A stretch of DNA of 64,000 nt from an uncultured Methanolobus sp. (GCA_963675495.1 OY776215.1:2304001-2368000); one strand, 5' to 3'. Numbered from the stretch's first letter, positions 34,494 through 50,729 are shown. The notes: generated by a model not told the origin, from the sequence alone. Numbers and translations: made by a program.

Positions 34494-35276
34494 ATGAAAT
34501 TGACAATAAATGATCTGGATTTTAGTTATTCAAGTACTCCTATTCTCAAAAATGTCAAAATGGAACTAAATCCTGGAGAAGTCGTAAGCATCCTTGGCCC
34601 CAACGGGGCAGGCAAATCCACACTCATAAAGTGTATAGACCGCATACTGAACCCTCACAGTGGAGAGATACGGTTAGGTGACAGAGATGTTGAAAGTATG
34701 AGCAATATGGAAATTGCCAGGCACATGGGTTATGTCCCACAATCAGCAGGACGTATGTTCCCTGCCACGGTTCTCGATACGGTCCTGATGGGGAGAAGAC
34801 CCCACGTAACCTGGAGATTCAACGATAAAGATATCGATAAAGCATTAAATGCCCTTGAATTGATGGGAATTGAAGGTTTTGCTTTTCGTGACTATGGTGA
34901 ACTTAGTGGAGGACAACAGCAAAGGGTAATTATTGCCCGTGCGATCGCCCAGGAAACAGACATTCTGCTCCTGGATGAACCCACTAGCAATCTTGATATA
35001 AAGCACCAGATCGAAAGCATGGAGATTGTAAAAAAGATGGTCAAGGATACAGGTATCTCCGCGATAATGGCTATTCACGATCTGAATCTTGGTGCGAGGT
35101 ATTCGGACAGAATAATAATGATGTCCGAGGGAAATATTGTTGCAATGGGTTCTCCGTTCTCGGTGCTGACCGCAGAGAACATTGCATCTGTTTATGGTGT
35201 TGAAGCCGCAGTAAAAGAGGAAGAAGGAATTCCTTATGTTGTTCCTTTGAGATCGAGCGGATTGCAAGGTACGTGA
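34494..35276 (+). CDS. FecE/BtuD-type ABC ATP-binding subunit
   Basis: GPNGAGKS, LSGGQ, LLLDEPT. Confidence 0.95.
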   Translation: MKLTINDLDFSYSSTPILKNVKMELNPGEVVSILGPNGAGKSTLIKCIDRILNPHSGEIRLGDRDVESMSNMEIARHMGYVPQSAGRMFPATVLDTVLMGRRPHVTWRFNDKDIDKALNALELMGIEGFAFRDYGELSGGQQQRVIIARAIAQETDILLLDEPTSNLDIKHQIESMEIVKKMVKDTGISAIMAIHDLNLGARYSDRIIMMSEGNIVAMGSPFSVLTAENIASVYGVEAAVKEEEGIPYVVPLRSSGLQGT

Positions 35277-35742
35277 GTTCAGCACAATGACAATACCAAT
35301 GCTTGCCTATGAAGTCTTCTTGAAATGACATTATTTGAGCACAAGGTACTGCATTTGACTGTAAAATTAATAATCAGACTATAAAAATTATTTGTTGGAA
35401 TAGTGAATATTTCTATTCAATGACCTTTTTAACCCAAGTTTGAGAGTTTTCACTCTTTGATGGAGACAATGTCTTCTCTTTCAACCCAAAGTTTCCATTT
35501 TTTGTCCGGAAAATCTATTTGACAGTTTAAACAATTTAGTACAAATTACTACGATTTGACCCATTTTTGCTCTATAAGCAGTGTATTTTTCGCATCAAAG
35601 TTGGCATAAATGTACTTTTTTGTCTGAACATCCTGAATATAATATTCACAGATTCTTTTCAATTTTACTTTTTTAAAACCACATTAATTTATTGATTTTT
35701 GAGATACTTACTGCAACTTTAGTTCTATTGAAAATCTGCAAG

Positions 35743-35760
35743 TGCGTAATATTAATATGT
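35743..35760 (+). promoter_or_regulatory. Promoter (BRE/TATA-like) of the host tRNA-Leu
   Basis: TGCGTAATATTAATATGT ending 30 nt before the tRNA 5' half; near-identical copy at 35882-35899. Confidence 0.65.
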
Positions 35761-35790
35761 AAAGTATATGTTTACAACATGTTCTTTTGT

Positions 35791-35833
35791 GCGGGGGTTG
35801 CCCAGCCTGGCCAAAGGCGCAGGGCTTAGGACC
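35791..35833 (+). pseudogene. 5' half of host tRNA-Leu(TAG), interrupted at attL
   Basis: GCGGGGGTTGCCCAGCCTGGCCAAAGGCGCAGGGCTTAGGACC, then non-tRNA sequence; joined to 50637-50678 it gives an 85-nt cloverleaf. Confidence 0.92.
35821..35833 (+). repeat. attL core
   Basis: AGGGCTTAGGACC identical to 50624-50636. Confidence 0.9.
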
Positions 35834-35881
35834 ATATTCATAGGGCTTCATAGTATTTTCATCTAAAAATAGACTTGTGAA

Positions 35882-35899
35882 TGCGCAATATTAATATGT
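35882..35899 (+). promoter_or_regulatory. Promoter of the element-borne tRNA-Leu
   Basis: TGCGCAATATTAATATGT, 17/18 identical to the host promoter, same 30-nt spacing. Confidence 0.65.
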
Positions 35900-35929
35900 G
35901 AACAATATCTTTAATGATTATTCTTTTAT

Positions 35930-36014
35930 GCGAGGGTTGCCCAGCCAGGTCAAAGGCGATGGGCTTAGGACCCATTATCGTAGGATTTCGTGTGTTCGAA
36001 TCACACCCCTCGCA
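35930..36014 (+). tRNA. tRNA-Leu(TAG), element-encoded, intact
   Basis: GCGAGGG/CCCTCGC acceptor, ATGGG-ctTAGga-CCCAT anticodon arm, variable arm ATC-gtag-GAT, GTGTG-TTCGAAT-CACAC. Confidence 0.95.
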
Positions 36015-36066
36015 CTTGTTTTTAGGGATATAGGTAACGTAGCACTTGTTTTTTGGGATATAGGTA
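36012..36066 (+). repeat. Tandem 25-bp direct repeat (30-bp period) after the element tRNA
   Basis: GCACTTGTTTTTAGGGATATAGGTA and GCACTTGTTTTTTGGGATATAGGTA, one mismatch. Confidence 0.85.
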
Positions 36067-36091
36067 TCCTGAAAAACAGATACTCAGGATT

Positions 36092-36988
36092 TTACAATGT
36101 TAATTGTTTAATTGCTTCGTTTAATTTAGCAATTTGATCTAATTGATCAAAAATTCCTCCTTCCTGTAAGAATTTTAGAAGAAGGTAACAATAAAATCCA
36201 TAAAGATTGGACAAAATATCTCTGATAGCGTCCATCTCATAAACCTTATTTCCAAAAATTAATTCTTTTGTGTCACTATCATAGTAATAATCAGAATGGG
36301 CAATTTTATTTCTAATAAAAGAGTTTTGAACAATATCACAGTTCCATCCATTCAAGAACTCTTGTGTGTTAAAATAATTAATTAATTCACCTCTGGAAAT
36401 TGTCATCCCTTTCATTTTTGTTTTTCGATATGTTTTACAGAATTTCTTTGATTTTTCATCTTGCCTTCTTTGTTTGTAAGCTATTTTCACTGTAATATCT
36501 GTCAAAAAGAGGATTGTTAATTCATAAATCTGCACATATGTCGTTAATACCTGATTTAATCTGAATTCAATAGAAAAATTTTCATGATTTATCTTCTCCA
36601 TATCACTTGCAATTTGCTGCAAATTCCATACTTTAGGAAAATGTGACCATAAATCATTACCAAGTCCTTTTCCTTTTGTTTCTTTATAGAGTTGAGTTAT
36701 TAATCTATCAATAAAATCTATGCTTTGTGCGTCTAGTTTTTCACTCTGTGAAAGCAAGTCTTGCAAAAAACCTACAAGTTGGTCATGAGTGCTTGACATT
36801 TGGTAACAAAAATCTTCCAGATTATTGGGATATTTTGTTTCAAATTCCTCGTTAACTAATTGCATAAATCCAGTTGGAATTTTAGTATTCAATTCGGATT
36901 CGATATTGTAAAAACGTCTATTAATCTCATCCTTAGCTTTTGGTTTAAAGTTTTTAAAGACATTTGGATCAAGAGTCATACTTCCCAT
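36092..36988 (-). CDS. Putative HEPN-domain protein (candidate RNase/toxin)
   Basis: Helical-looking 298-aa ORF with C-terminal R-x4-H motif IRNKIAH. Confidence 0.6.
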   Translation of the reverse strand: MGSMTLDPNVFKNFKPKAKDEINRRFYNIESELNTKIPTGFMQLVNEEFETKYPNNLEDFCYQMSSTHDQLVGFLQDLLSQSEKLDAQSIDFIDRLITQLYKETKGKGLGNDLWSHFPKVWNLQQIASDMEKINHENFSIEFRLNQVLTTYVQIYELTILFLTDITVKIAYKQRRQDEKSKKFCKTYRKTKMKGMTISRGELINYFNTQEFLNGWNCDIVQNSFIRNKIAHSDYYYDSDTKELIFGNKVYEMDAIRDILSNLYGFYCYLLLKFLQEGGIFDQLDQIAKLNEAIKQLTL

Positions 36989-37112
36989 TCACCTTATGTT
37001 TGGTTTAGAAATACTATTCGTTAAGCAAGATTTCATTACATGTAGTATTTATTTATACTTATAAATAGAATATGTTATAAAGTTCGTCTACTATTACTTT
37101 TGAGGATTCACA

Positions 37113-39953
37113 ATGCTTGATCTCAACGAATTCCAGACAAGGAAACAAAAAATCGATGTGCTTCTCAAAGAGCATGGATGGAACGTTTCTGACAGGTCAC
37201 AAGTTATTGTTGAGGTTGATACAAAACAATCTGATTTTAAAAAACAGCTCTACAAACAGGTTAATGAAACCCTGAAGAATGATTTAGAGAGCAAATATGT
37301 AGATTATCTCTTACTTGATAGTCTGGGCAATCCTATTGCTGTCATTGAAGCCAAGAGGACATCAAAAGACCCTATTGTTGGGCAAAAGCAAGCTGAGCAA
37401 TATGCTGATGACATTAAGGCTCAGACCGGAAAGGATGTTTTCATTTATCTTTCCAATGGATATGAAATATGGTTCTGGGATAGGGAACGTTATCCTGTAA
37501 GACAGGTCAAAGGATTCCACACTCAAAAAGACCTTGAAAGAATGGATTACCAGATACAGAGCGGCAAGATAGACCATGATATCGATGTTAATACGGATAT
37601 TGTTGACCGTGCAAAAAGCATTGAGGTTACAAAGAGAGTTGTGGAACATATCCGCAAAGGACATAGAAAAGCTCTTGTTGTTATGGCTACTGGCACAGGA
37701 AAGACCCGTGTTGCAATGGCTATCATTGACCAGCTCATGCGTGAGGGTCGTGCTCAGAAAATCTTGTTTTTAGCTGATCGTAGGGAACTTAGAAGACAGG
37801 CTTACGATAAGGGATTTATGAAATTCTTCCCGGATGAATCCAAGGAGAGAATTCTTTCAGGTAATTATGATCCAAATAAAAGACTGTATGTTTCCACCAT
37901 CCAGACATTTCAGGAGATCTACAGCCAGAAGGATAAGGATGGAAGATACAGAATATCACCGGGAGAGTTCGACCTTATATTTTCGGATGAGGCTCACAGA
38001 TCCATTTATTCCAAGTGGAAAGGAATATTCACCTATCTTGATGCAATCCAAATTGGATTGACTGCAACTCCGGCTGATATGGTTGATAGAGATACCTTCA
38101 GGTTCTTTGAGTGTGATGATGATTCTCCAACCGCTCTTTATTCTTATGAGGATGCAGTCAAAGATGGAGTTCTCTGCGATTTCAGAAAGAATGTTTCAGG
38201 TGCAAGGACACATTTCCAGATGAATGGCCTTAGGCCTGATGATCTTACCGAAAGTGAGCGTGAAGAACTGCTCAATAAAGGTATTGACCCTGATACTATT
38301 GATTTTGAAGGTACGGATCTTGAGAAGAAGGTTGCTTTGAAGGGAACATCTGAAGCGATTGTCCGGGAATTTATGGATTATTGCCTTACTGATCAATCGG
38401 GAACTCTGCCAGCTAAGACTATTTTCTTTGCTATATCTAAACTCCATGCAAAGAGACTCTGGGAAGCTTTTGAAAGGTTGTATCCAGAATATAAAGGCCA
38501 GCTTGCAAAGATGATCACCTCTGAGGATTCAAGGGCTTCACAGTTGATAGATGATTTCAAGACTAAATCATTCCCAAGGGTTGCAATCTCCATTGACATG
38601 ATGGATACTGGCATCGATGTTCCAGAGGTATGCAATCTGGTGTTTGCAAAGCCTGTATTCTCGAAGATCAAGTTCTGGCAGATGCTTGGGAGAGGCACAA
38701 GGGCTGATGGTGCATGTGGGTTTAGGGATTGGTTGCCAAATGGTGAAAAGGAATACTTCAAGGTTTTTGATTTCTGGAACAATTTTGAGTACTGGGACAT
38801 GAACCCGGAAGGTGTGAAGAACGAGCCAACTGAGGCTATCACCAATCGTATATTCCTTTTCAAGCTCAAACAAATGAACGAGTTGATGAGTCGTAGTAAT
38901 TATGAGCTTGTGGATCAGTTGAAGGGGAGCATTATCGAAGATATCAGAACCTTACCTCAGGATTCAGTGAGTATCAAAGAGTATCTTCAAGATGTGGAAA
39001 AGGCATTGTCACCAAAGCTATGGGATAATGTAGGACTCGATCCTCTTGCTTTCCTCCAGAAGAAGATCATGCCACTGATGAAGTTCAAACCTGATGTGAA
39101 TCTGAAGGAAGCCAGCTTTACGCTGATGTGTGAGAAACTTGCTTTTGCAGTGCTTCAAAACAATACTCATGAGATAGAACGCCTGAAGAAGTCCATTGCT
39201 GAAATGGTGGATCATCTTCCAAGGACTCTGGATAAAGTGTGCGATAAAGAGGTGTTCCTGGATGAGATTCTATCCAATGCGTTCTGGAGTGGTGTGGGTT
39301 TTGAGGATGCTAAAAGGATGGTGGATGAAGTTGCACCTCTTATGCCCTATATGTCCAGAGAAGCAAGAGAAACAATTGTTATTGATATGAGTGATACCAT
39401 TGCAGAGAGGAAACAATGGACTATCAAGGATGATGAAGCCGAGTATGTGACCACATACAGAGCGAAGGTGGAAGACTGGATAAAGGAACTTGCAGAAACG
39501 CATCCTGTTATCCGCAAAATAAAGAATGATGGGATACTGACCGAAAGCGACCTCCAGCAGCTTGAGAACACGCTTTTTAATTCAGAACTTACCCTGAATG
39601 AGTCAAAGTTAAAGCAGATCTACCACAGGCAGAACACAAGCCTTGTGGAACTGATAAGAAACATACTCGGACTCTATGAGTTCCCATCTCCCGAAGACAC
39701 AATCAAAGATGCTTTCCAGACCTTTGTCATCGAGAACAACAAACACTACACAGCCGACCAGCTCAATTTTATACGCACTCTCCAGACTGTTTTCCTGAGA
39801 AAGAAACACATTGAATTCTCAACTCTCTGGAATGCCCCCTTCACTAATTTTGGCACAACCGCACCCATGCCCATGTTCTCTCAAGAAGAGTTAAATGCCT
39901 TTGTCAACATCTGCAACGGAGTAGAAAGAGAGATTTTTGGTTCAGAGGCATAA
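37113..39953 (+). CDS. hsdR: Type I restriction enzyme R subunit
   Basis: VDY...IEAKR nuclease, ATGTGKT, DEAH, LTATP, QMLGRGTR. Confidence 0.95.
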   Translation: MLDLNEFQTRKQKIDVLLKEHGWNVSDRSQVIVEVDTKQSDFKKQLYKQVNETLKNDLESKYVDYLLLDSLGNPIAVIEAKRTSKDPIVGQKQAEQYADDIKAQTGKDVFIYLSNGYEIWFWDRERYPVRQVKGFHTQKDLERMDYQIQSGKIDHDIDVNTDIVDRAKSIEVTKRVVEHIRKGHRKALVVMATGTGKTRVAMAIIDQLMREGRAQKILFLADRRELRRQAYDKGFMKFFPDESKERILSGNYDPNKRLYVSTIQTFQEIYSQKDKDGRYRISPGEFDLIFSDEAHRSIYSKWKGIFTYLDAIQIGLTATPADMVDRDTFRFFECDDDSPTALYSYEDAVKDGVLCDFRKNVSGARTHFQMNGLRPDDLTESEREELLNKGIDPDTIDFEGTDLEKKVALKGTSEAIVREFMDYCLTDQSGTLPAKTIFFAISKLHAKRLWEAFERLYPEYKGQLAKMITSEDSRASQLIDDFKTKSFPRVAISIDMMDTGIDVPEVCNLVFAKPVFSKIKFWQMLGRGTRADGACGFRDWLPNGEKEYFKVFDFWNNFEYWDMNPEGVKNEPTEAITNRIFLFKLKQMNELMSRSNYELVDQLKGSIIEDIRTLPQDSVSIKEYLQDVEKALSPKLWDNVGLDPLAFLQKKIMPLMKFKPDVNLKEASFTLMCEKLAFAVLQNNTHEIERLKKSIAEMVDHLPRTLDKVCDKEVFLDEILSNAFWSGVGFEDAKRMVDEVAPLMPYMSREARETIVIDMSDTIAERKQWTIKDDEAEYVTTYRAKVEDWIKELAETHPVIRKIKNDGILTESDLQQLENTLFNSELTLNESKLKQIYHRQNTSLVELIRNILGLYEFPSPEDTIKDAFQTFVIENNKHYTADQLNFIRTLQTVFLRKKHIEFSTLWNAPFTNFGTTAPMPMFSQEELNAFVNICNGVEREIFGSEA

Positions 39954-39956
39954 CGG

Positions 39957-41138
39957 ATGAAAAATGAGTTACCAGATGGGTGGAAGTTAGCAAAATTAAA
40001 AGACATTACTGAATGTTTAGATAATAAGCGAGTCCCGTTGAACGGTGAGGAAAGACTAAAAATTCAGGGAAATGTTCCTTATTACGGTGCTAATGGACAA
40101 TTAGATAACATCAATCAGTATATTTTTGACGAAGAATTGTTACTTGTTGCCGAAGATGGCGGTTCATGGGGGAAAAAACAAATCTGTGCTTATATCATAC
40201 ATGGAAAATCATGGGTAAACAACCATGCTCATGTGCTCAGGATGAAAAAAGATGTTGAGATTTCATTCTTAATGCACTGCTTAAATGAAGCCGATTTAAA
40301 TAAGTACATTACGGGAACAACAAGGGGAAAGCTCAATAGAGCGAATATGGACAAAATAGAAATTCCTCTCCCATCCCTCGAAACCCAACAGAAGATTATC
40401 ACCATCCTTGAAAAAGCCGAAGAGACTAAAAAACAGCGGGCACAGGCTTATTATTTGTCACAGCAACTCCTGCAAAGTGTGTTTTTGGAAATGTTTGGTG
40501 ATCCTGTGAGGAATCCGATGGGGTGGGAAGTTAGGAAGTTGGGAGAATTATCAACAAAAATACTAAGTGGATCTACCCCAAAAGGCGGAGAACAAGTTTA
40601 CGTAAAAGAAGGAATCACTTTTTTTAGAAGCCAAAATGTTTGGAAAAATAGAATTGAATTTAGTGATATAGCATTTATTGATGAAGCGACCCATAATAAA
40701 ATGAAAAAAAGCAGTTTAAAAAATAAAGATATTTTAGTTACTAAAACAGGAAGAATAAATACCGAGAATAGTAGTTTAGGAAGAGCAGCACTATTCTTAG
40801 GAGAAAATAACAGTGCAAATATTAACGGACATGTTTATTTGATACGATTACAGGAAAATAATATACATAAATTTATTTTATTTATTCTAACAACAAATGC
40901 ATATAGAGACTATATTAGAAGTGTATGTGTTGGAGGAATTGATAAAAGACAGATAAATAAACACCATTTAGAAGAATTTCCAATTATTTACCCTCCCCTC
41001 CCCCTTCAAGAAAAATTTGCTGAAATCGTTGAACAAATTGAAAAAACAAAGCAATTCCAACAACAAGCATCCCAAGAACTCGATAATCTCTTCAACACAC
41101 TTATGCAAAAAGCCTTCAATGGAGAATTAGTATCATGA
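39957..41138 (+). CDS. hsdS: Type I R-M specificity subunit
   Basis: LPDGW start, two TRDs, conserved IPLPSLETQQKI and PPLPLQEKF, terminal KAFNGEL. Confidence 0.95.
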   Translation: MKNELPDGWKLAKLKDITECLDNKRVPLNGEERLKIQGNVPYYGANGQLDNINQYIFDEELLLVAEDGGSWGKKQICAYIIHGKSWVNNHAHVLRMKKDVEISFLMHCLNEADLNKYITGTTRGKLNRANMDKIEIPLPSLETQQKIITILEKAEETKKQRAQAYYLSQQLLQSVFLEMFGDPVRNPMGWEVRKLGELSTKILSGSTPKGGEQVYVKEGITFFRSQNVWKNRIEFSDIAFIDEATHNKMKKSSLKNKDILVTKTGRINTENSSLGRAALFLGENNSANINGHVYLIRLQENNIHKFILFILTTNAYRDYIRSVCVGGIDKRQINKHHLEEFPIIYPPLPLQEKFAEIVEQIEKTKQFQQQASQELDNLFNTLMQKAFNGELVS

Positions 41139-42640
41139 GACTCGCACCTGAAATTAAATCAAAGATAGATCTTCTCTGGGATAGGTTCTGGAGTGGTGGT
41201 CTGTCAAATCCTTTACAGTCCATAGAGCAGATGTCTTACATCATATTCATGAAAAGGCTTGAGGATATGGATGTTATGGAGCAGAGGCGTGCTAATTCTA
41301 TGGGGAAGGAGTATAAGTCCATCTTTGAAGGCAACGAAGAGTGCAGGTGGTCTGTATGGAAGCACAAGTCCGCTGAGGATATGCTAAAGCATGTAAGGGA
41401 TGTTGTTTTTCCTTTCATAAAGAATATTCATGACGGAGAGAAGACACTATTCTCACAGCACATGAAAGATGCTGTATTCATGATCCCAAAGCCTACGCTT
41501 TTGCAGGAAGCTGTGAGCATCATCGATGAACTCAATATAGCTGCTCAATCAACAGATGTACAGGGAGATCTTTACGAATACCTGTTAAGCCAGCTAGCTA
41601 CAGCAGGCAAGAACGGACAATTCAGAACTCCAAGGCACATAATCAGAATGATGGTGGAGCTTGTTGATCCCGATATCAATGACAGGATTTGTGATCCTGC
41701 ATGTGGTACAGGTGGTTTCCTGTTCACAGCTCACAAACATATTCTCAGAAAATACACCTCTCCTGATTTGATCGAGCAGGATAAAGAAGGTGACTATCAC
41801 AATCTGATAGGCGACAATATCACAGAACAAGAACACTGGGATAAACTTCATAATGACACATTCTATGGCTTTGACTTTGACTCAACAATGGTGAGGATCG
41901 GACTCATGAACATGGTGCTTCATGGTATCAAATATCCTCATATTGAGCTTGTAGATACCCTTTCAACTCTTTACACTGAAGAAGACCGCTATAATGTGAT
42001 CCTCGCAAATCCTCCATTCAAGGGCAGTATAGACAAAGACGATATCAACGATAAATTGAAGCTTGGAACTAAAAAGACCGAGTTGTTATTTGTTGAGAAC
42101 ATAATCCGCCTGCTTGAGATTGGTGGGAAATGTGGTGTCATTGTTCCTGATGGCGTACTCTTTGGAAGTTCCAACGCACACAAGAACCTGCGTAAGATGC
42201 TGCTTGAGGATTGCCAGCTTGAAGGTATTGTTTCCATGCCATCAGGTGTATTCAAGCCCTATGCAGGAGTGTCAACTGCTGTTATGATATTCACCAAGGG
42301 AGGAAACACGGAAAATGTCTGGTTCTACGACATGGAAGCAGACGGTTACTCTCTGGATGACAAGAGAACTCCAATTGATATGCGGGGCGATATCCCTGAC
42401 ATAATCGAGAGTTATAAGAACAGGAAAACAGGGAATCCTCAAGACCGGAAGGGTAAATGCTTCTATGTTCCATTTGATGAGATTAAAGATAATAACTATG
42501 ATCTTTCAATTTCTCGATATAAGGAAATCGAATATGAAGAGATTGAGTATGAGAAGCCAGAAGTCATTATTCAGAAGATTGATGAATTAGAGGATCAGAT
42601 TAAGGCTAATGTGGCTGAACTGAAAGAGATGTTGAAGTAG
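41135..42640 (+). CDS. hsdM: Type I R-M N6-adenine methyltransferase
   Basis: GQFRTPRHI, DPACGTGGFL, ANPPF. Confidence 0.95.
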   Translation: MRLAPEIKSKIDLLWDRFWSGGLSNPLQSIEQMSYIIFMKRLEDMDVMEQRRANSMGKEYKSIFEGNEECRWSVWKHKSAEDMLKHVRDVVFPFIKNIHDGEKTLFSQHMKDAVFMIPKPTLLQEAVSIIDELNIAAQSTDVQGDLYEYLLSQLATAGKNGQFRTPRHIIRMMVELVDPDINDRICDPACGTGGFLFTAHKHILRKYTSPDLIEQDKEGDYHNLIGDNITEQEHWDKLHNDTFYGFDFDSTMVRIGLMNMVLHGIKYPHIELVDTLSTLYTEEDRYNVILANPPFKGSIDKDDINDKLKLGTKKTELLFVENIIRLLEIGGKCGVIVPDGVLFGSSNAHKNLRKMLLEDCQLEGIVSMPSGVFKPYAGVSTAVMIFTKGGNTENVWFYDMEADGYSLDDKRTPIDMRGDIPDIIESYKNRKTGNPQDRKGKCFYVPFDEIKDNNYDLSISRYKEIEYEEIEYEKPEVIIQKIDELEDQIKANVAELKEMLK

Positions 42641-42795
42641 GATGTATAATTCTGCTTTTTAATTTCAATACTTTTCTTTTGAGTTATTTTTTCTTTATTC
42701 TCATCTCAATAACAATGATATAAAAATATATCAAAAAGCATTATCATTAGCACATTAATCACTCCAAACACTCATAAAAGGAGTAAAGTAATAAG

Positions 42796-43134
42796 TATCC
42801 TTAGGATAGGGACTTTTTGGCGGTGCCGTCCTCGTTCCCTTCGCATTACTGCGGGCGGAGCACCGCCTTGCATTGGTATTTGACGCACTGTCGTCCTGTG
42901 CTCCGGTAGGTGCTCGGACCACAGCGCTCTAATAAAGGCTGGTGCACCGATGCTCACAAGCTCACATCCGTGCATGGTTGATGTTTTCAAAAAAGCGATG
43001 CTGTTTTAGTAGTACGTTCAAACGCCACTGAGGCTTAATGATGCGTTGGAAACGCAGGATGTAGTTGACGCTCATGCGCCACTTAGGCTGTTCTTGGGAT
43101 ACCCTCCGGGACGGGTGTGAGTAGGAGGAGCATC
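42796..43134 (+). other. GC-rich structured non-coding block (candidate single-strand origin or ncRNA)
   Basis: Several hairpins plus long-range pairing of 42949-42971 with 43111-43134, set in AT-rich surroundings. Confidence 0.5.
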
Positions 43135-43159
43135 ATGTAAAAAGAGTATAAATTTTTTA

Positions 43160-45856
43160 TTAGACGAGACCTAACATAGATCCTAATCCAACAATTTTTG
43201 CAATTTTATGTGTCCATTCCCAACTGCTTACTTTTTCAATATTATCCCCTACCTCTACTGCAGTATCAAATGCATTCTTGAATTTAGTAGCAATTCTGGA
43301 AACGTTTGGTTGATCTTTTTCAGATTCTTCAATTGCTGTGTTGATATTACCATTTACAACGCTTAATTCATTATCAGGGAGACCTAATTTAGCAATTTCA
43401 TTTTTAAATATCATTAGGTTTTCATGGAGTTCTTTTCTATCATTTATTGATATATTGGTACTTTTATCAATTGTAATAGAACTATTTTCCCCACTGATAA
43501 TAGCATTTCCTCCAATGTTATATTGATTTACAGGTTGATATGGATGATTTCCCGCCGTTTTTCTTTCTCTTTCATTTTCAACCCCATGTAGTAATTGTTT
43601 TACACTATAGTTCTTATTTAATTGCCACACAAAGTATTCATCTTTGCTAGCTTTTTCGAAAGCAACCAACTCTTTATAGTCAATAGTGATTATGGGATTG
43701 TCTGGTAACGGTACTAACTCTTTGACAGGCATATTCTCAAAACCCGCATTAATTTCTCTAAAAGATTTCCGTATAATCGAAAGATATTCTTTCTTTGATT
43801 CTCCGTCAACATAGATGTATATTTTTTTGTCTTCCTTGTCCACTTTTATGATAGACATAGAATTAATTGATTTATCTTCTAGTACTACTCCATTTCTCCA
43901 TTGGAGTCCTTTTTTAATGTCAGTATGATTTCTCACAATAAATCTTGGCATTATGGAATTAGGTAAAAAATTGTATTCAATAATAAATTTCAATGAGTTT
44001 GGATTATCTAATTTGAAATCAGGTTGTTGGATTTCCAATAGGTCAGGAATGAGTATGGTATTTTTATTAATAAAGTAACACAACTCAAATTTTTCCATTA
44101 GATCAATGATAAATTTATGTGTATTGCGTGGATATTGGTAATCAATTTCGTTTTTTTTCTTTAGAATTTCAGTTAATAACTTAGTTTTTAACATCCCTTT
44201 CTTGTTTTGTAACTTATCAGATGTTATGATTTTGTAAACTGCTTCTGTGACCCACTTTGGATTCAATACGTGAGTGTCCAGTAAATTGTCGTCAGAAAAG
44301 TGTAATACAACTCCTAAGTCGTTAAGAAAATCAACAAGTGTTTCTTGTGATTCTTCTTTTGTAATTCCTTCAGATTCACATATTTCTTCATACTTTTCAA
44401 ATTTTATGTAGTGATCCGTTGATTTCTCTAATTGTGTTTTTACTTTGAACCAACTTTTTGGCCAAACCGTTTTGAGATGGTCAATGCTTGTTAGTTGCTC
44501 AACCAAGTTTTCTTTGAAATCCTCGATACCTTTTCCGCTTTTACAAGATAATCGATAAAATCCTTTTATTGATGGATATTTTTCTTGTAAGAATTTTCTG
44601 TCTACTTCAAACATCGGGTTTTCATCTACTTTATTAAGAACAATTAATACAGGGGAATTTCCGCCAAAGCTTTGAACGTGTTTAAGCCAGTATTCCGTTT
44701 TTTCTTCTTTCCTTCCGTCTAAAACTAAAATATAAAGACTTCTTTTTGACAAAAAGAATTGATGGGTTGCATGCATTATTTCTTGGCCGCCAAAATCCCA
44801 AAAATTGACTTTTATTTCTTTTTTTCTCTCCTTTATGTCCCACTCATTAATTTTTATACCATGTGTTTGTAATTCATGTGGGTCAAATTCATTTTTGATG
44901 AGCCTTTTTGACAAAGAAGTTTTACCTGAGCCTCCATCCCCAATTAACAACACTTTTACTTCATTCAGCGCTTGTGTTTCTCCTTCCAGCGATTTAAAAT
45001 ATTCTTTGACTGCTTCTTTACCCTTTTTTATGATATCTATTGGAGGGGTTTCAATAGGGTTGCCTCTTACAAAAATTCCATAAGGTGTATATTCGTCGTC
45101 CAATAGTATTTCTAAATTTAGTTCTGTAATCGCTGGTGGTAGGGCTGTTAGCTGATTACCGGTCAGGTCAAGTGTAGTAAGGTTCTTTAGTTCTGCAATC
45201 GCCGGAGGCAGTGATGTGAACCAGTTACGGAACAGGTTAAGTTCAGTAAGGTTCCTTAGTTTCGTGATATTCGGCGGCAGGGCTGTGAGCCGGTTCTTGG
45301 ACAGGTAAAGTCTAGTAAGGTTCTTTAGTTCTGCGATCTCCGGTGGTAGTGATGTTAGCTGGTTGCTGGCTAGGTCAAGTGTAGTAAGGTTCTTTAGTTT
45401 TATGATTTCCGGTGGCAGTGATGTGACCCAGTTATGGAACAGGGTGAGTTCAGTAAGGTTCTTTAGTTCTGCGATCTCCGGTGGCAGTGATGTTAGCTGG
45501 TTGCTGGCCAAGTTAAGTTTAGTAATGTTCTTTAGTTTTATGATTTCAGACGGCAGTGATATGAACCAGTTATCGTCCAGGTTAAGTTCAGTAAGGTTCT
45601 TTAGTTCTGCAATCTCAGGTGGCAGGGCTGCAAGCCGGTTATCGGACAGGTTAAGTTTAGTAATGTTCTTTAGTTCTGCAATCTCAGGTGACAGGGCTGT
45701 GAGCCGGTTACTGGCCAGGTTAAGTTCAGTAAGGTTCTTTAGTTTTGCAATCTCCGGCGGCAGTGATGTTAGCTGGTTATCGGACAGGTCAAGTGAAAAG
45801 TTATTATTTCTAGCGGCTTCTTTGATAAGTTGCAAAACAGTTTCTTTCATACCCAC
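43160..45856 (-). CDS. Roco protein (LRR-Roc GTPase-COR plus C-terminal helical domain)
   Basis: 10 LRRs; Roc motifs GDGGSGKTS, THG, WDFGGQ, NKVD; COR motifs LNDLGVVLHF, LNPKWVT, WRNGV. Confidence 0.93.
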   Translation of the reverse strand: MGMKETVLQLIKEAARNNNFSLDLSDNQLTSLPPEIAKLKNLTELNLASNRLTALSPEIAELKNITKLNLSDNRLAALPPEIAELKNLTELNLDDNWFISLPSEIIKLKNITKLNLASNQLTSLPPEIAELKNLTELTLFHNWVTSLPPEIIKLKNLTTLDLASNQLTSLPPEIAELKNLTRLYLSKNRLTALPPNITKLRNLTELNLFRNWFTSLPPAIAELKNLTTLDLTGNQLTALPPAITELNLEILLDDEYTPYGIFVRGNPIETPPIDIIKKGKEAVKEYFKSLEGETQALNEVKVLLIGDGGSGKTSLSKRLIKNEFDPHELQTHGIKINEWDIKERKKEIKVNFWDFGGQEIMHATHQFFLSKRSLYILVLDGRKEEKTEYWLKHVQSFGGNSPVLIVLNKVDENPMFEVDRKFLQEKYPSIKGFYRLSCKSGKGIEDFKENLVEQLTSIDHLKTVWPKSWFKVKTQLEKSTDHYIKFEKYEEICESEGITKEESQETLVDFLNDLGVVLHFSDDNLLDTHVLNPKWVTEAVYKIITSDKLQNKKGMLKTKLLTEILKKKNEIDYQYPRNTHKFIIDLMEKFELCYFINKNTILIPDLLEIQQPDFKLDNPNSLKFIIEYNFLPNSIMPRFIVRNHTDIKKGLQWRNGVVLEDKSINSMSIIKVDKEDKKIYIYVDGESKKEYLSIIRKSFREINAGFENMPVKELVPLPDNPIITIDYKELVAFEKASKDEYFVWQLNKNYSVKQLLHGVENERERKTAGNHPYQPVNQYNIGGNAIISGENSSITIDKSTNISINDRKELHENLMIFKNEIAKLGLPDNELSVVNGNINTAIEESEKDQPNVSRIATKFKNAFDTAVEVGDNIEKVSSWEWTHKIAKIVGLGSMLGLV
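45113..45799 (-). repeat. Ten 69-bp (23-aa) LRR-coding tandem repeats
   Basis: Recurrent GTAAGGTTCTTTAGTT...GGCAGTGATGT units on the + strand. Confidence 0.9.
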
Positions 45857-46166
45857 ACGCCTATTTTCTTAATTTATATGATTGGGATTTAGCGACTCAA
45901 ATATCGAATAATTATAATTTATAATGTGACTAAACCTTCAAAGTCATTTCTATTTAAGCTTTTCATTTTTGTAGGGTTATGCCACTTTTAAGAACCACAT
46001 TTTGATTATTTGTATGGTTTTAAAATGAAGTATGGAGAGTAATAGTTACATTTCCTTAAACAAAAAAAGAGTGGAAGTCAGAACAGCAGTTGCTTCCTAG
46101 AACACTTTTGTTAGAAGTGGTTAAAATGTCGATGTATTCACAATTGAATTAGCCACCTCCTGAAAC

Positions 46167-48056
46167 TTACTTTGTTATGGGTAAATTCTCCCTTAGTTTC
46201 ACATAACCATTCATAATATCCTCTAAATTACCCCCGTGTTTTATCCTGTATCTTCCTCTTTTCATTCTCTCGAAGTCATTGGATTTGCTTACATTCTTAT
46301 CAAAGAATCTGTTACTCCATGGGTGGAAGAACTTTCGGGTCACAAATCCCTTTGTTCGAAGTTCGTTTACCAGATTGTTAAAGAAGGAAACATCCTTGAA
46401 AGATTCGTGCAGGTCTGTATATTTTAGGTATGCAACAAGATAATGCTTTTTATCTTCATCGTTTGGGTAGGAGCTCTTTTTTGTAAATTGGTGATAGCCA
46501 TGCTGGTATTTTTCTTTATCAAAGCCTGATGTCCTTCTGGTGAAATGGAAAAGAAGTTTTGCATACAGGTAGCGTTTCATCTGCTCAGGATCGGTGAAGA
46601 ACTGGGTGTGAATGGGTTTACGGCCTGTTCCAATATCGGCAAAGAGCTTTAGTTCCTTTCCCAGGACAATTTCATTTCTCAGGTTCTTCTTTGTCTTTTT
46701 GTACATTTTGTGTGAGAACCTTGCAGTATTGGGTTCTATGTCTGACATGTATTTTGTGACAAGCAGAGGGGTGGTGTCGTGCAGGCTGGAATCCATAATA
46801 CCACAGCAATGGTAGTTGTCCATCACTTCTTTTAGGTATTCAAGTGGGTCTAGTGGAAGTGCTGTGTTCCAGCAGATCTCTATCTGGCTGATGTTAAATT
46901 CCATAGGTGCTTTCCTGATCTCGTCCTGCTCAAAGCCTTCTCGTTCAAGCATTTTGCGGTATGCTTTTTTGGCTTTGTGTTTCAGTTCTTGGAAGGCTTG
47001 CTGTTCGTATTTATGATACTCTTTTTCATACCCTATTGGAATGAAGTTGTTCTCGTCCAGCAGTTCATTATTGAATGCTTCCTCTACTTCTGGAATGTCT
47101 TCCTTCATCTTTTTGTAGACTATCCTTTGCATATTCGCATAGATAAAAAGTGATACAGGAGCACCTTTTGGAGGATTGTTTCTAAAACGATAGGTTATTC
47201 CCTCCGTTTCCCATAGGTAGGAATCTTTGTAGGACTTGGGTATTGATGTCAGGCTATAGTCTGGAAGTATAGAACGATGTTTCATGAAATCATATTCTTC
47301 ATCCAGATTAGTAGGCAAAAATTGTTCAACATAATCTTCTATGTCTTCAATATCGTAGCCTTTATTGGATAGTTCTTGTTTATGGCGCATCAAACGCTCA
47401 ACAAGGACTTCCTTTTGGAACCTGGGGGCTGTAGTTTTTATGACCTTCTTAACGTCGCCTTTGAAAGTGAGGTAATCCTTGGAGTAAACCTGTAGGCTTA
47501 TCCTGTCGACCATCAATGTGGGGTATTCGATATGTTCTGAGTCCTGTTTGTAAAAGTCGTCCATCAGAAGAGTATCCCATTCAAGGTATTGATCTCTGAC
47601 AAACTCCCTTTTAAAGTTTGAGAATTTTGAATTTTCGTTCTTTAAGAATCTGTCAATCCGTATTCTATAACCATTTTCCCTATAGTAATCACATATCTTA
47701 TCGTTGAACTCACTTAATCTGTCAATGGATCCAGGATTGGAGTAATAGTGGTCAATGCTTTCTTTTTCAGTGAGTCCAAGATGCCTTCTTACGAGTTCAC
47801 AGAAAGGAGTAGGTCCATCTTTAAGGATATAGTCAAATAAACAGATGTCTTCTTGAAAGCGGTCAAAAAGGTCAATGTCATATTTGCTCTGTTTGTAATC
47901 TTTGATTGCTGATTCAATTGACCTCCAGAAAGAGGTTGGTAGTTCATAAGACTTAACATCAGCAATTGGGATCTTACTTTCATCTCTAAAAAGCTCATCA
48001 ATAATCTTTTTGTTTGCCTTCTTGTCAACTGTGAAGTTGGATGATGTGTTCATCAT
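46167..48056 (-). CDS. Putative replication initiator (weak Rep_trans/CRI-like motifs)
   Basis: MVDRISL, ISQIEICWN, KMYKK...LRNEI in the order expected for Rep_trans-type proteins; sits in the element backbone. Confidence 0.5.
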   Translation of the reverse strand: MMNTSSNFTVDKKANKKIIDELFRDESKIPIADVKSYELPTSFWRSIESAIKDYKQSKYDIDLFDRFQEDICLFDYILKDGPTPFCELVRRHLGLTEKESIDHYYSNPGSIDRLSEFNDKICDYYRENGYRIRIDRFLKNENSKFSNFKREFVRDQYLEWDTLLMDDFYKQDSEHIEYPTLMVDRISLQVYSKDYLTFKGDVKKVIKTTAPRFQKEVLVERLMRHKQELSNKGYDIEDIEDYVEQFLPTNLDEEYDFMKHRSILPDYSLTSIPKSYKDSYLWETEGITYRFRNNPPKGAPVSLFIYANMQRIVYKKMKEDIPEVEEAFNNELLDENNFIPIGYEKEYHKYEQQAFQELKHKAKKAYRKMLEREGFEQDEIRKAPMEFNISQIEICWNTALPLDPLEYLKEVMDNYHCCGIMDSSLHDTTPLLVTKYMSDIEPNTARFSHKMYKKTKKNLRNEIVLGKELKLFADIGTGRKPIHTQFFTDPEQMKRYLYAKLLFHFTRRTSGFDKEKYQHGYHQFTKKSSYPNDEDKKHYLVAYLKYTDLHESFKDVSFFNNLVNELRTKGFVTRKFFHPWSNRFFDKNVSKSNDFERMKRGRYRIKHGGNLEDIMNGYVKLRENLPITK

Positions 48057-48250
48057 ACCAACCCCCTTGATCTTTTGAGTTCCTCAAGGGTGATTTTTCC
48101 ACATCTAACAGGTTCCAGAAGTTCATCCAATTTTTCATTTGCCAGCTCATCTATCCTGAACATCATTTGGAAGGACTGTGGCATATGTTCAATGATCTGT
48201 TCGTCTACTTTTTCAAGAGAAGGTTTAATACCTGATACATTACTATTCAT
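48053..48250 (-). CDS. Small protein translationally coupled to the putative Rep
   Basis: ATGA overlap with the downstream gene; GAGGTG RBS ahead of ATG 48250. Confidence 0.6.
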   Translation of the reverse strand: MNSNVSGIKPSLEKVDEQIIEHMPQSFQMMFRIDELANEKLDELLEPVRCGKITLEELKRSRGLV

Positions 48251-48433
48251 AAATGTACACCTCAAGGTGTGCGCTTATGCATCGGTTCAAGATCTTGCAG
48301 GATTTGTCGGACCGGTGCACATTCTGCTTTTTTGTTTAATTGTCTGTACTGTTTACTCGTTGTTGAGTTTCAGAGGGAATTGTTCCTCAGATACAAGAAT
48401 GGAGTACTGTTATAAATAGTGTCATAAGTGGTA

Positions 48434-48488
48434 GGCAATCGGTAACAAATCCCTACTAGTGGGCAATGGAAATCAAATCCCTACTAGT
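48434..48488. repeat. Two 27-bp direct repeats between divergent backbone genes (operator/iteron candidate)
   Basis: GGCAATcggtaaCAAATCCCTACTAGT and GGCAATggaaatCAAATCCCTACTAGT, 28-bp period. Confidence 0.75.
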
Positions 48489-48526
48489 TAGATGTCTTCA
48501 AATAGTTTGTATTAAAATCATCTAAT

Positions 48527-49450
48527 GTGATTAATATGGATTCAGATTATACCTCAGATGACTATGCTAAAGAATGTCTCCTTAATAGAACAGATGAAAA
48601 GATCATCATGTATCTCATTAGCAATAACAATGAGCCATCATATGCTGCAGAAATTGCGCGTGAGTTTGAAGCTGATAAGTCATGGTTAAAAGACAAATGT
48701 GAAAAGTTGAAAGATCAGGGTATTTTGTTATCAAAAGACAAATGTCCTAATCGATCTAGATATACGGAGCACTACTACTTGGGTGATATCGTAGATGTTT
48801 TAAATTATTTATATGAGCATCAATCTGAAAACACCCTGCTTGATCATGTCATGACAAAGGAATATTACAGGGGACAAATTGATCACTTGATATCCAATTT
48901 TGAAAATAAACGGGTATCTTCAGGCTACAAGGCCTTTTCAGCAAATGAAAAAGAAGCGATACAACTATGCCTTAAATATTCCAGCAAGGCTCTATATGTT
49001 GTACTGGGAATCTATGATTGTGAGAAACTTTCTGGATATCTTGCTTATGAATACAAAACTTTGGCCAACCACATAAAGGAAGGTCGGTTTATATCGGTGT
49101 CCGCAATAGCTGCCGCCATAGTCAAAACAAAGATAGTTGACGAGGATAAAAAAGTTCAACTATTGGATGAAATTCATGATACCGCTTTAAATTCTTTGAG
49201 TTCAAGAGTTGAGCATTTTGGGAATTTACTTGATAAAAGTAAAGTACCTATCTTGTTTGAACAATTCTTGTTGGATAATCCCTTGATAGAGTTTTTAACA
49301 GCAGAAGAAGACCGTGAACAGCTTAGATTGGATATTAAAAGAGTTAATTTCTTAGTTAGTGACATCATAGATCCATCACTAAATCCTATTTTAGCGAAAG
49401 ATGAAAAAGATAGGTATGCACATTTACCTTCCCTTAATCTGAAACGCTAA
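48527..49450 (+). CDS. N-terminal winged-HTH regulator
   Basis: EKIIMYL...AAEIAREFEADKSWL...KLKDQGIL...YYL. Confidence 0.7.
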   Translation: MINMDSDYTSDDYAKECLLNRTDEKIIMYLISNNNEPSYAAEIAREFEADKSWLKDKCEKLKDQGILLSKDKCPNRSRYTEHYYLGDIVDVLNYLYEHQSENTLLDHVMTKEYYRGQIDHLISNFENKRVSSGYKAFSANEKEAIQLCLKYSSKALYVVLGIYDCEKLSGYLAYEYKTLANHIKEGRFISVSAIAAAIVKTKIVDEDKKVQLLDEIHDTALNSLSSRVEHFGNLLDKSKVPILFEQFLLDNPLIEFLTAEEDREQLRLDIKRVNFLVSDIIDPSLNPILAKDEKDRYAHLPSLNLKR

Positions 49451-50573
49451 TCTTCTTCAATACTTCATTTATCCGAGCTTCCACCAATTCATCAACCTTT
49501 GATTGCATAAGTTGGGTGAGCTTCTCATCCGTCGTCTTTATTTCAGTATCCATCTTAATTGCAGTTTCCATGTCAAGGACCATTGAACAACTACTACAAT
49601 ACTTGGAGTCATGTGGGTTGAGGCTTTTACAACGTGGACATTCGATTGGTTTGAGTTCAAGTTTCTCTTTTTTGACCTCATCCTCTATAATGCCGTAAGA
49701 GGCCAGTAATTTCTTTTCAACATCCTCTCCTGATAGGTGGATGTATGTAGCGGGCATCTTGGAATCAGCTTCCCAGCCTGCAATGATCCTCAGTTCTGTT
49801 TCCTTGAAACCACGCTTGACAAGGTCGGTGAGCTTCCCATGCCTAAATGCATGTGGGTGTATGTTCTTCTTGACTCCTGCATCATTTGCTACTGTCTTTA
49901 GCATGTTCTGAACTGTACGGATATCAAGTTTTTTTGGTTCTTTTCCGTTATTTCTGAATGTGACAAATAAAGGAGCATTGGGGTCATCTTTGTTAGGGTG
50001 CTGATTGATCCATGCTTGAAGGTCAGGAACTGCTTCAATGAGTCTTATTCTTCTCATTCCTGTCTTACCTTCTACAACTATCACAGCTCCATATTTGTCT
50101 ATCTCTACATGTCCTAGGTTCAGGTTGAGTATTTCGTTAGCTCTTGCGGCACTATCCCAGAAGGTCATGACAATAGCTCTATCACGTTGAGTCTTGCAGG
50201 CGGGTACTAGTTTCTTCACATCCGCCGGCACAATTATTTCCTTAGTGGGCAAGTGGTTCTTAGGACTGCGGGTCTTGATATCTTCGAAAAAAGCATTATC
50301 TGGATTTAACCACTTGAAGAAAAGCCTCAGGTCAACTATGTCGTTGTGGACTGTTTTTGGCTTATTGTTTTTTCTTCTATGCAGAATATAGCTTTCTATA
50401 TCTTTTTTTGTGATTTTATTAATGTTTTTGTTATTGTGGTATTTTAGGAAGGTGTAAACTTTCCATAGTTTTGTGTTGATAGTTGTTTCTTTGAAGTTGT
50501 TGAGACCAAGGCTCCTGGCATAGTCATCCAGTATCTCTTTGTTCTCTCCTTCAGTTTTGGGTGCATATTTCAT
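49434..50573 (-). CDS. int: Tyrosine integrase with C-terminal zinc ribbon
   Basis: RDRAI...DSAARANE, GKTG, HPHAFRH, GW...MPATYIH, CPRC...CSSC. Confidence 0.95.
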   Translation of the reverse strand: MKYAPKTEGENKEILDDYARSLGLNNFKETTINTKLWKVYTFLKYHNNKNINKITKKDIESYILHRRKNNKPKTVHNDIVDLRLFFKWLNPDNAFFEDIKTRSPKNHLPTKEIIVPADVKKLVPACKTQRDRAIVMTFWDSAARANEILNLNLGHVEIDKYGAVIVVEGKTGMRRIRLIEAVPDLQAWINQHPNKDDPNAPLFVTFRNNGKEPKKLDIRTVQNMLKTVANDAGVKKNIHPHAFRHGKLTDLVKRGFKETELRIIAGWEADSKMPATYIHLSGEDVEKKLLASYGIIEDEVKKEKLELKPIECPRCKSLNPHDSKYCSSCSMVLDMETAIKMDTEIKTTDEKLTQLMQSKVDELVEARINEVLKKISVSD

Positions 50574-50623
50574 ACTATGTAGTATGCTTTATACAGTTAT
50601 AAATATTACGTGACCCTGTAAGT

Positions 50624-50678
50624 AGGGCTTAGGACCCTGTCTCGTAGGAGTTCGTGCGTTCGAATCGCACCTCCCGCA
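50624..50678 (+). pseudogene. attR core plus 3' half of host tRNA-Leu(TAG)
   Basis: AGGGCTTAGGACCCTGTCTCGTAGGAGTTCGTGCGTTCGAATCGCACCTCCCGCA; no D-arm or 5' acceptor strand upstream. Confidence 0.92.
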
Positions 50679-50729
50679 TCATACTTTTCATTTTAGTAGT
50701 TCAATTCCATCTTTAGTTTCTATTCATTC

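Follow-up and report, generated by a model that had tools for sequence, protein, structure and literature searches.

A genomic island of an uncultured Methanolobus that interrupts the host tRNA-Leu(UAG) gene and carries a replacement tRNA

The interrupted tRNA-Leu(UAG) gene

The stretch of DNA considered here, termed the window, comprises 64,000 nucleotides from an uncultured Methanolobus sp. (GCA_963675495.1 OY776215.1:2304001-2368000). Within it lies a 14.8-kb island (35834-50623), bounded by a 13-bp core, that sits inside the host tRNA-Leu(UAG) gene and carries a second, complete tRNA-Leu(UAG) of its own. The host gene is cut at its anticodon loop into a 5' half (35791-35833, + strand), which forms attL, and a 3' half (50624-50678, + strand), which forms attR. 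The core is present in both halves (35821-35833 and 50624-50636) and takes in the anticodon loop together with three pairs' worth of the stem on its 5' side and the initial bases of the stem on its 3' side. The 12-mer GGGCTTAGGACC, which is the core minus its first A, has exactly three copies in the window, at 35822, 35961, and 50625, the second of which falls inside the intact element-borne tRNA; with at most one mismatch allowed there are four matches against 0.08 expected, a number reached in none of 100 shuffles.

Run on the window, ARAGORN reports a single tRNA-Leu(tag) at 35930-36015 and no tRNA at the left or the right junction, where only fragments are present, and it reads the two halves, once joined by script, as a tRNA-Leu(tag). 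The joined halves have the anticodon stem CAGGG/CCCTG and the acceptor stem GCGGGGG/CTCCCGC. Non-tRNA sequence follows the left core on its 3' side and precedes the right core on its 5' side; identity stops at the end of the core, and neither junction therefore rebuilds the tRNA. A preliminary description of this DNA had proposed both that the gene lies in two pieces sharing a 13-bp core and that neither junction restores it, and the reading of the sequence and ARAGORN agree with it on each count.

The 5' half matches the intact genes of genomes G001 and G003, differing from that of G001 at one base, tRNA position 9, and is preceded by the probable promoter region of the split gene (35743-35790, + strand), with a TATA-like AATATTAATATG motif that also precedes the native tRNA-Leu(UAG) genes of the genus. 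Promoter region and 5' half together (35745-35833) are 92% identical to the front of the intact tRNA locus in G001 and 96% identical to that in G003, and the 3' half is 98-100% identical to the 3' part of the native gene in most congeners. The junctions were also sought in Logan contigs from four public runs of one study, which cover two samples and possibly the source organism. Independent contigs from all four runs cross both junctions with 0 differences. Two of these, 20,634 bp and 9,141 bp in length and found in runs X1-X3 from one sample, cover 35000-45343 and 45455-51500, again with 0 differences, and run X4, from the second sample, covers the stretch by short contigs only.

The element-borne tRNA-Leu(UAG)

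The tRNA carried by the island (35930-36014, + strand, 85 nt) is recognized by ARAGORN and by Rfam (RF00005, 49.4 bits against a cut-off of 29), starts 96 bp past the left core, and has the same orientation as the host 5' half. It diverges from the split gene in the acceptor stem, D loop, anticodon stem, variable-arm stem, and T stem, and reads ATGGG/CCCAT in the anticodon stem, GCGAGGG/CCCTCGC in the acceptor stem, and GTGTG/CACAC and ATC/GAT in the remaining altered stems, with pairing kept throughout and all 23 cloverleaf pairs intact. The preliminary description had noted this second 85-nt tRNA and its compensatory stem changes, every one of which preserves pairing. Covariation was evaluated on an alignment of 35 tRNA-Leu(UAG) genes (16 element-borne, 9 of the host type, and 10 native genes of the other type; 16 distinct rows), in which 368 of 368 cells pair (100%) and six pairs change on both sides; the covariation score was matched in 0 of 500 shuffles, and slid controls pair in 34-53% of cells. 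The discriminator A and the long variable arm are retained, and the tRNA, which appears functional, is presumably transcribed and charged.

Between the left core and the tRNA lies a 96-bp spacer (35834-35929, + strand), the right arm of attP, whose position is kept, and whose sequence is partly kept, at the left end of 14 other elements. It holds a second copy of AGGGCTT (35842-35848) and a promoter-like motif (~35883-35898), and it may serve both in integrase binding and as the promoter of the element tRNA.

The host genome is a single contig of 2,874,008 bp that encodes a tRNA-Pyl, and by four measures the element-borne gene is its only intact Leu(TAG) gene: ARAGORN without introns (50 tRNA genes), ARAGORN with introns (56), Rfam RF00005 (47 matches), and a pattern census (1 match). 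CUA is the rarest Leu codon, at 5.9 per 1000 codons (3214 uses in 1059 long open reading frames, ORFs), and standard wobble rules do not allow the other Leu tRNAs present (GAG, CAG, UAA, and CAA) to decode it. On both grounds the element tRNA would be the only CUA decoder of the cell and needed by it. The genome-wide count that the preliminary description had called for returned one, element-borne, gene; the dependence on the element that it proposed would be conditional, as precise excision would restore the host gene.

Two further features concern this tRNA. In run X4, a 370-base contig of high depth corresponds to 35625-35994, that is, host promoter, 5' half, spacer, and most of the element tRNA. 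The run consists of many short contigs of very uneven depth and in this resembles RNA data; its kind is unrecorded and no inference is drawn from it. Directly 3' of the tRNA, at 36008-36075, a unit of ~30 bp is repeated twice in tandem, beginning in the last bases of the tRNA (GCACTTGTTTTT, then GGGATATAGGTA), and a GGG(A/T)TATAG(G/T)TA motif is found also after the native tRNA-Leu(CAA) at genome position 787135 and after several tRNA-Leu 3' ends in relatives. Methanosarcina casposons have been described, in the passages of one study that deal with them, as targeting tRNA-Leu with a 14-bp duplication starting CGCA (PMC4779613), and the repeats at 36008-36075 may be casposon target duplications or solo terminal repeats.

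Empty sites in sister species

In two relatives, G001 and G024, the left flank and 5' half are contiguous with the 3' half and right flank, giving one intact tRNA. The left and right flank matches overlap there by 13 bp, and the right flank includes the downstream C39-peptidase gene. The attB of the island therefore lies inside tRNA-Leu(UAG), and the empty site that had been predicted for related genomes is found in both. On an rpoA1 nucleotide tree of 29 genomes, G001, G024, and the genome of the window form one clade (Shimodaira-Hasegawa-like approximate likelihood-ratio test, SH-aLRT, 100), and since these sister species are without the insertion, it is recent in the genome of the window.

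Recurrence of the design across genomes

A survey of 177 genomes of the family found homologues of the integrase in 112. The loci analysed were the 23 fetched at identities of at least ~49%, seven more distant ones at 41% or below being left out; three other matches (48-52%) were not fetched. In all 23 loci, the 3' half of a tRNA-Leu, from the anticodon loop on, adjoins the integrase start, the targets being Leu(TAG) in 12, Leu(TAA) in 6, Leu(CAG) in 4, and Leu(CAA) in 1. At the other end of the Leu(TAG) elements, the host promoter and 5' half are followed by ~95 bp of spacer, a promoter-like motif, and a tRNA-Leu(UAG) that is complete. This left-end architecture was found in 10 of 11 further genomes of the TAG type (G010 and 9 of 10 others), the remaining one, G108, being without the 5' half, and the Leu(TAG) elements range from ~14.6 to 42.5 kb. 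With four more loci found by the pattern census (G043, G046, G095, and G091), the combination of split target and replacement tRNA is present in 15 genomes of five genera, 14 of them additional to that of the window; within genus g18, 6 of 13 species genomes carry such an element. The design extends to other isoacceptors. In G127 and G174, a spacer of 46 bp separates the 5' half of a Leu(CAG) gene from a complete tRNA of this kind, and G138 has the equivalent arrangement for Leu(UAA). The survey of integrase homologues for a cognate tRNA at the opposite end, which the preliminary description had suggested, thus gave the predicted result many times over.

Scans of public collections with the integrase alignment returned 43 genome, 4 viral, and 80 metagenome loci, of which 91 were examined. 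A tRNA T-arm lies within 170 bp of the integrase start in 77, the form expected of attR; five more are attR forms by eye, with a variant T-arm or a truncated contig, and three show nothing. The remaining six contigs carry integrase, core, short spacer, and complete tRNA-Leu (two GAG, three TAA, and one CAG), with integrases 42-59% identical to that of the window. Circularization of an integrated element would give just this order of integrase, core, spacer, and tRNA, and the six contigs match the predicted attP. The carried tRNA lies 26-136 bp from the attP core, beside the integrase. Members of the integrase family in public records come from Methanolobus, Methanococcoides, Methanosarcina, Methanoperedens, Methanomicrobiales, and Methanoregulaceae.

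Among five elements compared, the integrase alone is common to all. The G068 element carries MttB-family methyltransferases, a corrinoid protein, and a transporter, and the G109 element a type I-B CRISPR-Cas system, with ORFs of the same sizes and order in G107. The element family is defined by its compact module, in which integrase and attP core are joined by a short spacer to a tRNA-Leu, and the cargo is interchangeable. One Leu(TAA) member is 61% identical to the window integrase and one Leu(TAG) member only 51%; as the target does not strictly follow integrase identity, repeated retargeting of the integrases is suggested.

Some single islands contain extra modules of core, spacer, and tRNA-Leu. 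In G138 (L095/L096, G138:C21) these comprise CAG twice as well as CAA, and in G147 (L093/L094, G147:C17) an extra tRNA-Leu(CAA) module lies inside the island, which suggests that tRNA-Leu cassettes accumulate or are exchanged within islands. In the G068 element (L088, 1278-2798), two adjacent ORFs of 343 and 147 amino acids match the N- and C-terminal parts of MttB, with the corrinoid protein alongside, and this pair fits one gene read through an in-frame UAG as pyrrolysine.

Anticodon-stem alleles and their proposed fixation at native loci

According to the pattern census, tRNA-Leu(UAG) exists in the family in only two alleles, CAGGG/CCCTG (allele C) and ATGGG/CCCAT (allele A), and as a single copy in 143 of the 148 genomes with a census match. 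All 16 element-borne Leu(UAG) tRNAs are of allele A. The split host 5' halves are of allele C (CAGGG) in 14 of 15 loci, the fifteenth being decayed, and the wider scans gave 16 genuine attR sites of the Leu(TAG) type, which read CCCTG in 15 cases, TCCTG in 1, and CCCAT in 0; four false positives of the Leu anticodon-loop regular expression (L162, L203, L204, and L174) were kept out of this tally. The Leu(CAG) and Leu(UAA) elements follow suit, their carried tRNA differing from the target at two anticodon-stem pairs. The element tRNAs of G107, G109, and G108 depart from the host C sequence only at the two anticodon-stem pairs that distinguish the alleles and at one D-loop base, and that of G010 comes close to this. 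A symmetric stem around a 7-nt overlap is described as the canonical core site of tyrosine integrases in passages of a review of tRNA-targeting elements (PMC8371274). By analogy, the anticodon stem would be the integrase binding site, with the crossover in the 7-nt anticodon loop, and the two changed stem pairs would block recombination of the carried tRNA, shielding it from its own integrase although it lies only ~100 bp from attP. Extra A-type copies of tRNA-Leu(UAG), 5'-truncated or variant, are found at L109 and L110 (G020) and at L112 (G009), and these are probably remnants of other elements.

G108 has a promoter of the native type joined directly to a tRNA of the element type, and the element, its integrase, and attR are still present downstream; G131 has the same fusion of promoter and tRNA for Leu(CAG). 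Six congeners (G017, G005, G011, G018, G099, and G103) carry allele A as their sole gene, which in the latter four stands behind a native-like promoter. The rpoA1 tree unites the six in a single clade (SH-aLRT 99), which lies within the C-type species. In G011, G018, G099, and G103, 9 of the 85 positions of the tRNA are unlike those of the C gene of the genus, and the whole sequence equals that of the element tRNA in G043, a member of another genus; those of G005 and G017 differ from the G043 element tRNA by one D-loop base. The preliminary description had held that relatives with the 35930-type tRNA as their native gene at this locus would refute the model. Formally the six congeners, with their native 35930-type anticodon stem, are such relatives, but because they form one derived clade, and because their tRNA matches an element-borne one, they fit replacement of the host gene, and the insertion stands. 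The clade would represent a single replacement of a host gene by an element copy, as judged from the tree and the tRNA sequences. Between the tRNA and the conserved downstream C39-peptidase gene, no integrase, 3' half, or attP-arm remnant was found in G018 and G005, the two genomes searched, where the tRNA itself and the C39 gene gave the only matches; the putative replacement has thus left no scar in these two.

Elsewhere, a Leu(CAG) gene (G161:C44:15656-15679) combines an element-type 5' stem strand, CCAGA, with a host-type 3' strand, TCCAG, a mismatched hybrid of the kind expected from core recombination between an element tRNA and attR.

Taken jointly, these observations may reflect a widespread archaeal family of target-replacing integrases that travels as a minimal cassette (integrase, attP core, and tRNA-Leu), that has been retargeted to all five Leu isoacceptors, and whose integrase-resistant tRNA alleles become fixed at native loci, a view that we advance as tentative and as somewhat less likely than not. 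The changed anticodon-stem pairs would remove the integrase core site, so that the element could not recombine with itself and attB would be closed to competitors. The resistant allele would then reach fixation at the native locus once the orphaned 5' half had recombined with the element tRNA, G108 and G131 being putative intermediates. If this is true, mobile elements drive the turnover of otherwise ultra-conserved tRNA genes, and the six-species Methanolobus-like clade, and possibly whole ATGGG/CCCAT genera, owe their tRNA-Leu(UAG) to such an event.

Weighing the explanations

An insertion that leaves the host gene unrestored, a single-copy replacement tRNA with a conserved cloverleaf, and a design that recurs in other genomes are very probably accounted for by a 14.8-kb integrative island that split the host tRNA-Leu(UAG) by means of its tyrosine integrase and supplies a replacement. 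Recombination by the integrase would have taken place between the chromosomal gene and an attP core that has the same 13 bp as the anticodon stem-loop, and integration would have left the element tRNA, with its own promoter-like motif, just downstream of the orphaned host 5' half. Under classical restoring integration, by comparison, 35930-36014 would be the rebuilt host tRNA, 50624-50678 the displaced 3' end, and the fragment at 35791 a relic. Regeneration at one end is indeed the usual rule for tRNA-targeting islands in the passages describing Islander (PMC4383910), and the 12-bp core is common to the three copies. The sequence at 50624-50678, however, pairs perfectly with the 35791 fragment and not with the 5' part of 35930-36014 (ATGGG/CCCTG and GCGAGGG/CTCCCGC). 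In addition, at the empty sites of G001 and G024 the promoter and 5' half that run straight into the 3' half are of the 35791 type, and spacer and tRNA accompany the integrase also where genus and cargo are different, all of which makes restoration highly improbable. Split tRNA genes whose halves are transcribed separately and joined in trans occur in Nanoarchaeum, and such a gene would free the host from reliance on the element tRNA. Both halves here are undecayed and the 5' half keeps its promoter, yet they overlap by 13 bp including the whole anticodon loop, which is the signature of an att duplication and not of complementary half-genes, and the break coincides exactly with an integrase-bounded insertion that is absent in the sister species; trans-joining is, accordingly, just as hard to credit.

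A further possibility is that the island integrated as described and has since become immobile, being simply the host's present tRNA locus. The public-run contigs hold no excision product, attL is destroyed in G108 and G131, where the element tRNA is fused to a native promoter, and the relative G004 has a decayed integrase. Against such fixation, the window integrase is whole and has its full set of catalytic residues, neither the halves nor the cores show decay, the closest species are without the insertion, and the missing attB and attP say nothing, as public contigs drop rare variants; we regard fixation as rather unlikely. That an assembly artefact joined paralogous tRNA-Leu sequences is a negligible prospect, for although the paralogues are similar enough to yield a false joint in public contigs, the X1-X3 contigs (20,634 and 9,141 bp) agree with the window without a difference and the same architecture is present in 14 further genomes. 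One joint in the public contigs, 35820->50639, was considered as a restored attB and rejected, as it has 15 intervening foreign letters and corresponds to the paralogous tRNA-Leu(CAG).

Several observations weigh against the preferred explanation of an island that splits its target and supplies a replacement. No excised circle and no restored attB was seen in the public-run contigs, which drop rare variants and are thus uninformative on this point, and the contigs of attP form come from relatives at most 59% identical, not from the element of the window. The essentiality of Leu(UAG) rests on the standard wobble rules, and the element tRNA is the presumed mature species, the public runs being contigs whose DNA or RNA kind is not recorded. 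Allele A is the native form throughout some genera (all 44 matches in g25, all 6 in g16, and both in g15), so that elements might carry it because of the host from which their tRNA was captured and not through selection for immunity. The element tRNA of the window differs from the g25 gene at four positions. Two relatives also depart from the expected arrangements. G002 (L030, G002:C43, 5590-5820) shows a scar in which a tRNA of the host type (CAGGG/CCCTG) comes after a 5' half in decay and a spacer of the element type, and no integrase was found in its genome with the window integrase as query. G004 (L028/L029, G004:C1, 1970358-1986757) has an intact host-type tRNA and, 16 kb downstream of it, an integrase pseudogene in three frames and a decayed 3' half with a 1-base deletion; its tally of two 3' halves and one 5' half resembles classical restoring integration. 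Neither arrangement is explained by the model of a split target and a supplied replacement.

Relation to known systems

The closest precedent is tRNA-dependent lysogeny in actinobacteriophages, described for Fionnbharth and its subcluster K4 and for cluster L (Guerrero-Bustamante & Hatfull, mBio 2024, PMC10865867), with the Lj965 prophage of Lactobacillus johnsonii cited there as a related case. The mycobacteriophage precedent for complementation by an element-borne tRNA to which the preliminary description alluded is thus real. As set out in the relevant passages of that paper, the phages share with the island a tyrosine integrase and an attB inside a tRNA gene (an essential one in the phages), a common core of ~10-13 bp with no junction that rebuilds the tRNA, and a tRNA encoded by the element that has diverged while keeping the anticodon and is equipped with expression signals, represented here by the promoter-like motif. 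The island differs from the phages in its archaeal host, in having no viral hallmark genes among those scanned, and in its defence or metabolism cargo. One integrase clade here covers all five Leu isoacceptors, and target and carried tRNA are regularly unlike each other in the anticodon stem. In addition, the tRNA lies 26-136 bp from the attP core next to the integrase as one module, whereas that of Fionnbharth lies elsewhere and overlaps gene 37 (PMC10865867). The requirement for the carried tRNA, too, is experimentally shown in the phages (PMC10865867) and only presumed for the archaeal island. Literature searches found no archaeal report of a broken target combined with tRNA replacement: among papers using the term tRNA-dependent lysogeny none is archaeal by title, and those passages of a review of archaeal recombinases that the searches found do not mention non-reconstitution of the tRNA. 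In this island, tRNA-dependent lysogeny has a counterpart that is archaeal and non-viral, the strategy having been described up to now from certain bacterial viruses only.

Classical tRNA-targeting islands and prophages, including those with an anticodon-loop sublocation, have been reviewed (PMC8371274), and the sections on this sublocation describe the same tyrosine integrase, the same attB centred on a 7-nt anticodon loop in a symmetric stem, and the same direct-repeat bounds as found here. In contrast to the island of the window, however, these elements are reported to have the tRNA's 3' part within their attP and to regenerate the gene (PMC8371274, PMC4383910). Among archaeal elements, MGE1 and MGE2 of Methanosarcina mazei are integrated in tRNA-Leu and have been described in classical terms (Krupovic et al. 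2016, PMC4779613). Like the island, they are tyrosine-integrase elements in a Methanosarcinaceae tRNA-Leu, unrelated to known viruses or plasmids; the main-text passages of that account, supplements apart, mention no broken target or replacement tRNA (PMC4779613). MGE1 and MGE2 may nonetheless belong to the same integrase clade as the island. The SSV-type elements resemble it in having an archaeal integrase that targets a tRNA gene, but the passages on their suicidal integrases describe a split integrase gene and a preserved tRNA, the reverse of the whole integrase and split tRNA seen here (PMC7253208, PMC8371274).

The practice of breaking an essential tRNA gene and supplying a substitute is not peculiar to actinobacteriophages and is also that of a large family of non-viral islands in methanogens and methane oxidizers, with hosts among Methanosarcinaceae, Methanoperedens, and Methanomicrobiales and with restriction-modification, CRISPR-Cas, and methylamine-methyltransferase cargo. 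For annotation, island finders that assume a regenerated target would misplace the left boundary of such elements and take the element tRNA for the host gene. The natural series is graded, from empty site through split gene with replacement and recombined form to replaced allele, and its existence makes the reshaping of tRNA genes by mobile elements directly testable. The cassette of integrase, attP, and tRNA could also provide a self-selecting integration tool for methanogen genetics, like the phage versions in mycobacteria.

Integrase and cargo of the island

The tyrosine integrase (49434-50573, - strand, 379 amino acids) is intact, with its ORF whole and the core 50 bp upstream of its start codon. 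It matches Pfam Phage_integrase (PF00589, E = 6.7e-18) and has a SAM-like N-terminal domain; a match to the NCBIfam XerA-like family is below cut-off. Residues R130/R132, K170, H241, R244, W267, and Y277 are invariant in nine members of the integrase clade, and from the order of the motif we take them to be the catalytic R, K, HxxR, W, and Y. The C-terminus (49434-49640) bears, after the catalytic Y, a CxxC...CxxC zinc ribbon and a helical tail, conserved and invariant in the nine clade members; we know of no such ribbon on classical Xer or lambda-type integrases. The 50 bp between integrase and core (50574-50623, + strand), conserved in Leu(TAG)-targeting members, would be the left arm of attP, and they hold a CCCT that is inverted relative to the AGGG of the core.

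Adjacent to the integrase is a block (46167-49450) of ORFs of 629 (46167-48056, - strand), 70 (48053-48265, - strand), and 307 amino acids (48527-49450, + strand), common to the G109 element (79%, 81%, and 75% identity) and partly to that of G010. None of the three was assigned a family by Pfam, NCBIfam, or PADLOC, and PHROGs and Atlas gave weak signals, none of them usable for the 629-amino-acid ORF; for the 307-amino-acid ORF, leads from the same two sources point to a weak N-terminal winged-helix signal. The cargo proper includes a type I restriction-modification system (37113-42640, + strand) made up of hsdR (37113-39953; Pfam ResIII, HSDR_N, and EcoEI_R_C), hsdS (39957-41138; Methylase_S), and hsdM (41135-42640; N6_Mtase and HsdM_N), with a PADLOC REase_I match at E = 3e-129. 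It also includes a ROCO-type GTPase of 898 amino acids with LRR-Roc-COR architecture (43160-45856, - strand; Pfam LRR, Roc, COR-A, and COR-B). This GTPase adjoins the restriction-modification system, and its matches to bacterial LRR effectors in NCBIfam are repeat-driven and far below the cut-offs. Near the left end, an ORF of 298 amino acids (36092-36988, - strand) has one weak PHROG match of unknown function and no match in Pfam, NCBIfam, or PADLOC.

Pfam and PHROGs scans of the window element and three relatives found no capsid, terminase, or other virion gene, and the scan of IMG/VR with the integrase alignment gave four loci at 33-35% identity and no close viral relative. Several ORFs are without a family and might yet belong to a novel virus. 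As no virion genes were seen, the element, which works in the manner of the phage system, is better called a genomic island than a provirus.

Upstream of the split tRNA, ~200 bp at 35426-35633 are 75-85% identical to many sites in congeners, with at least 11 copies in G009 and 10 in G023, and further copies are present elsewhere in the genome of the window; this stretch is probably a small repeated mobile element.

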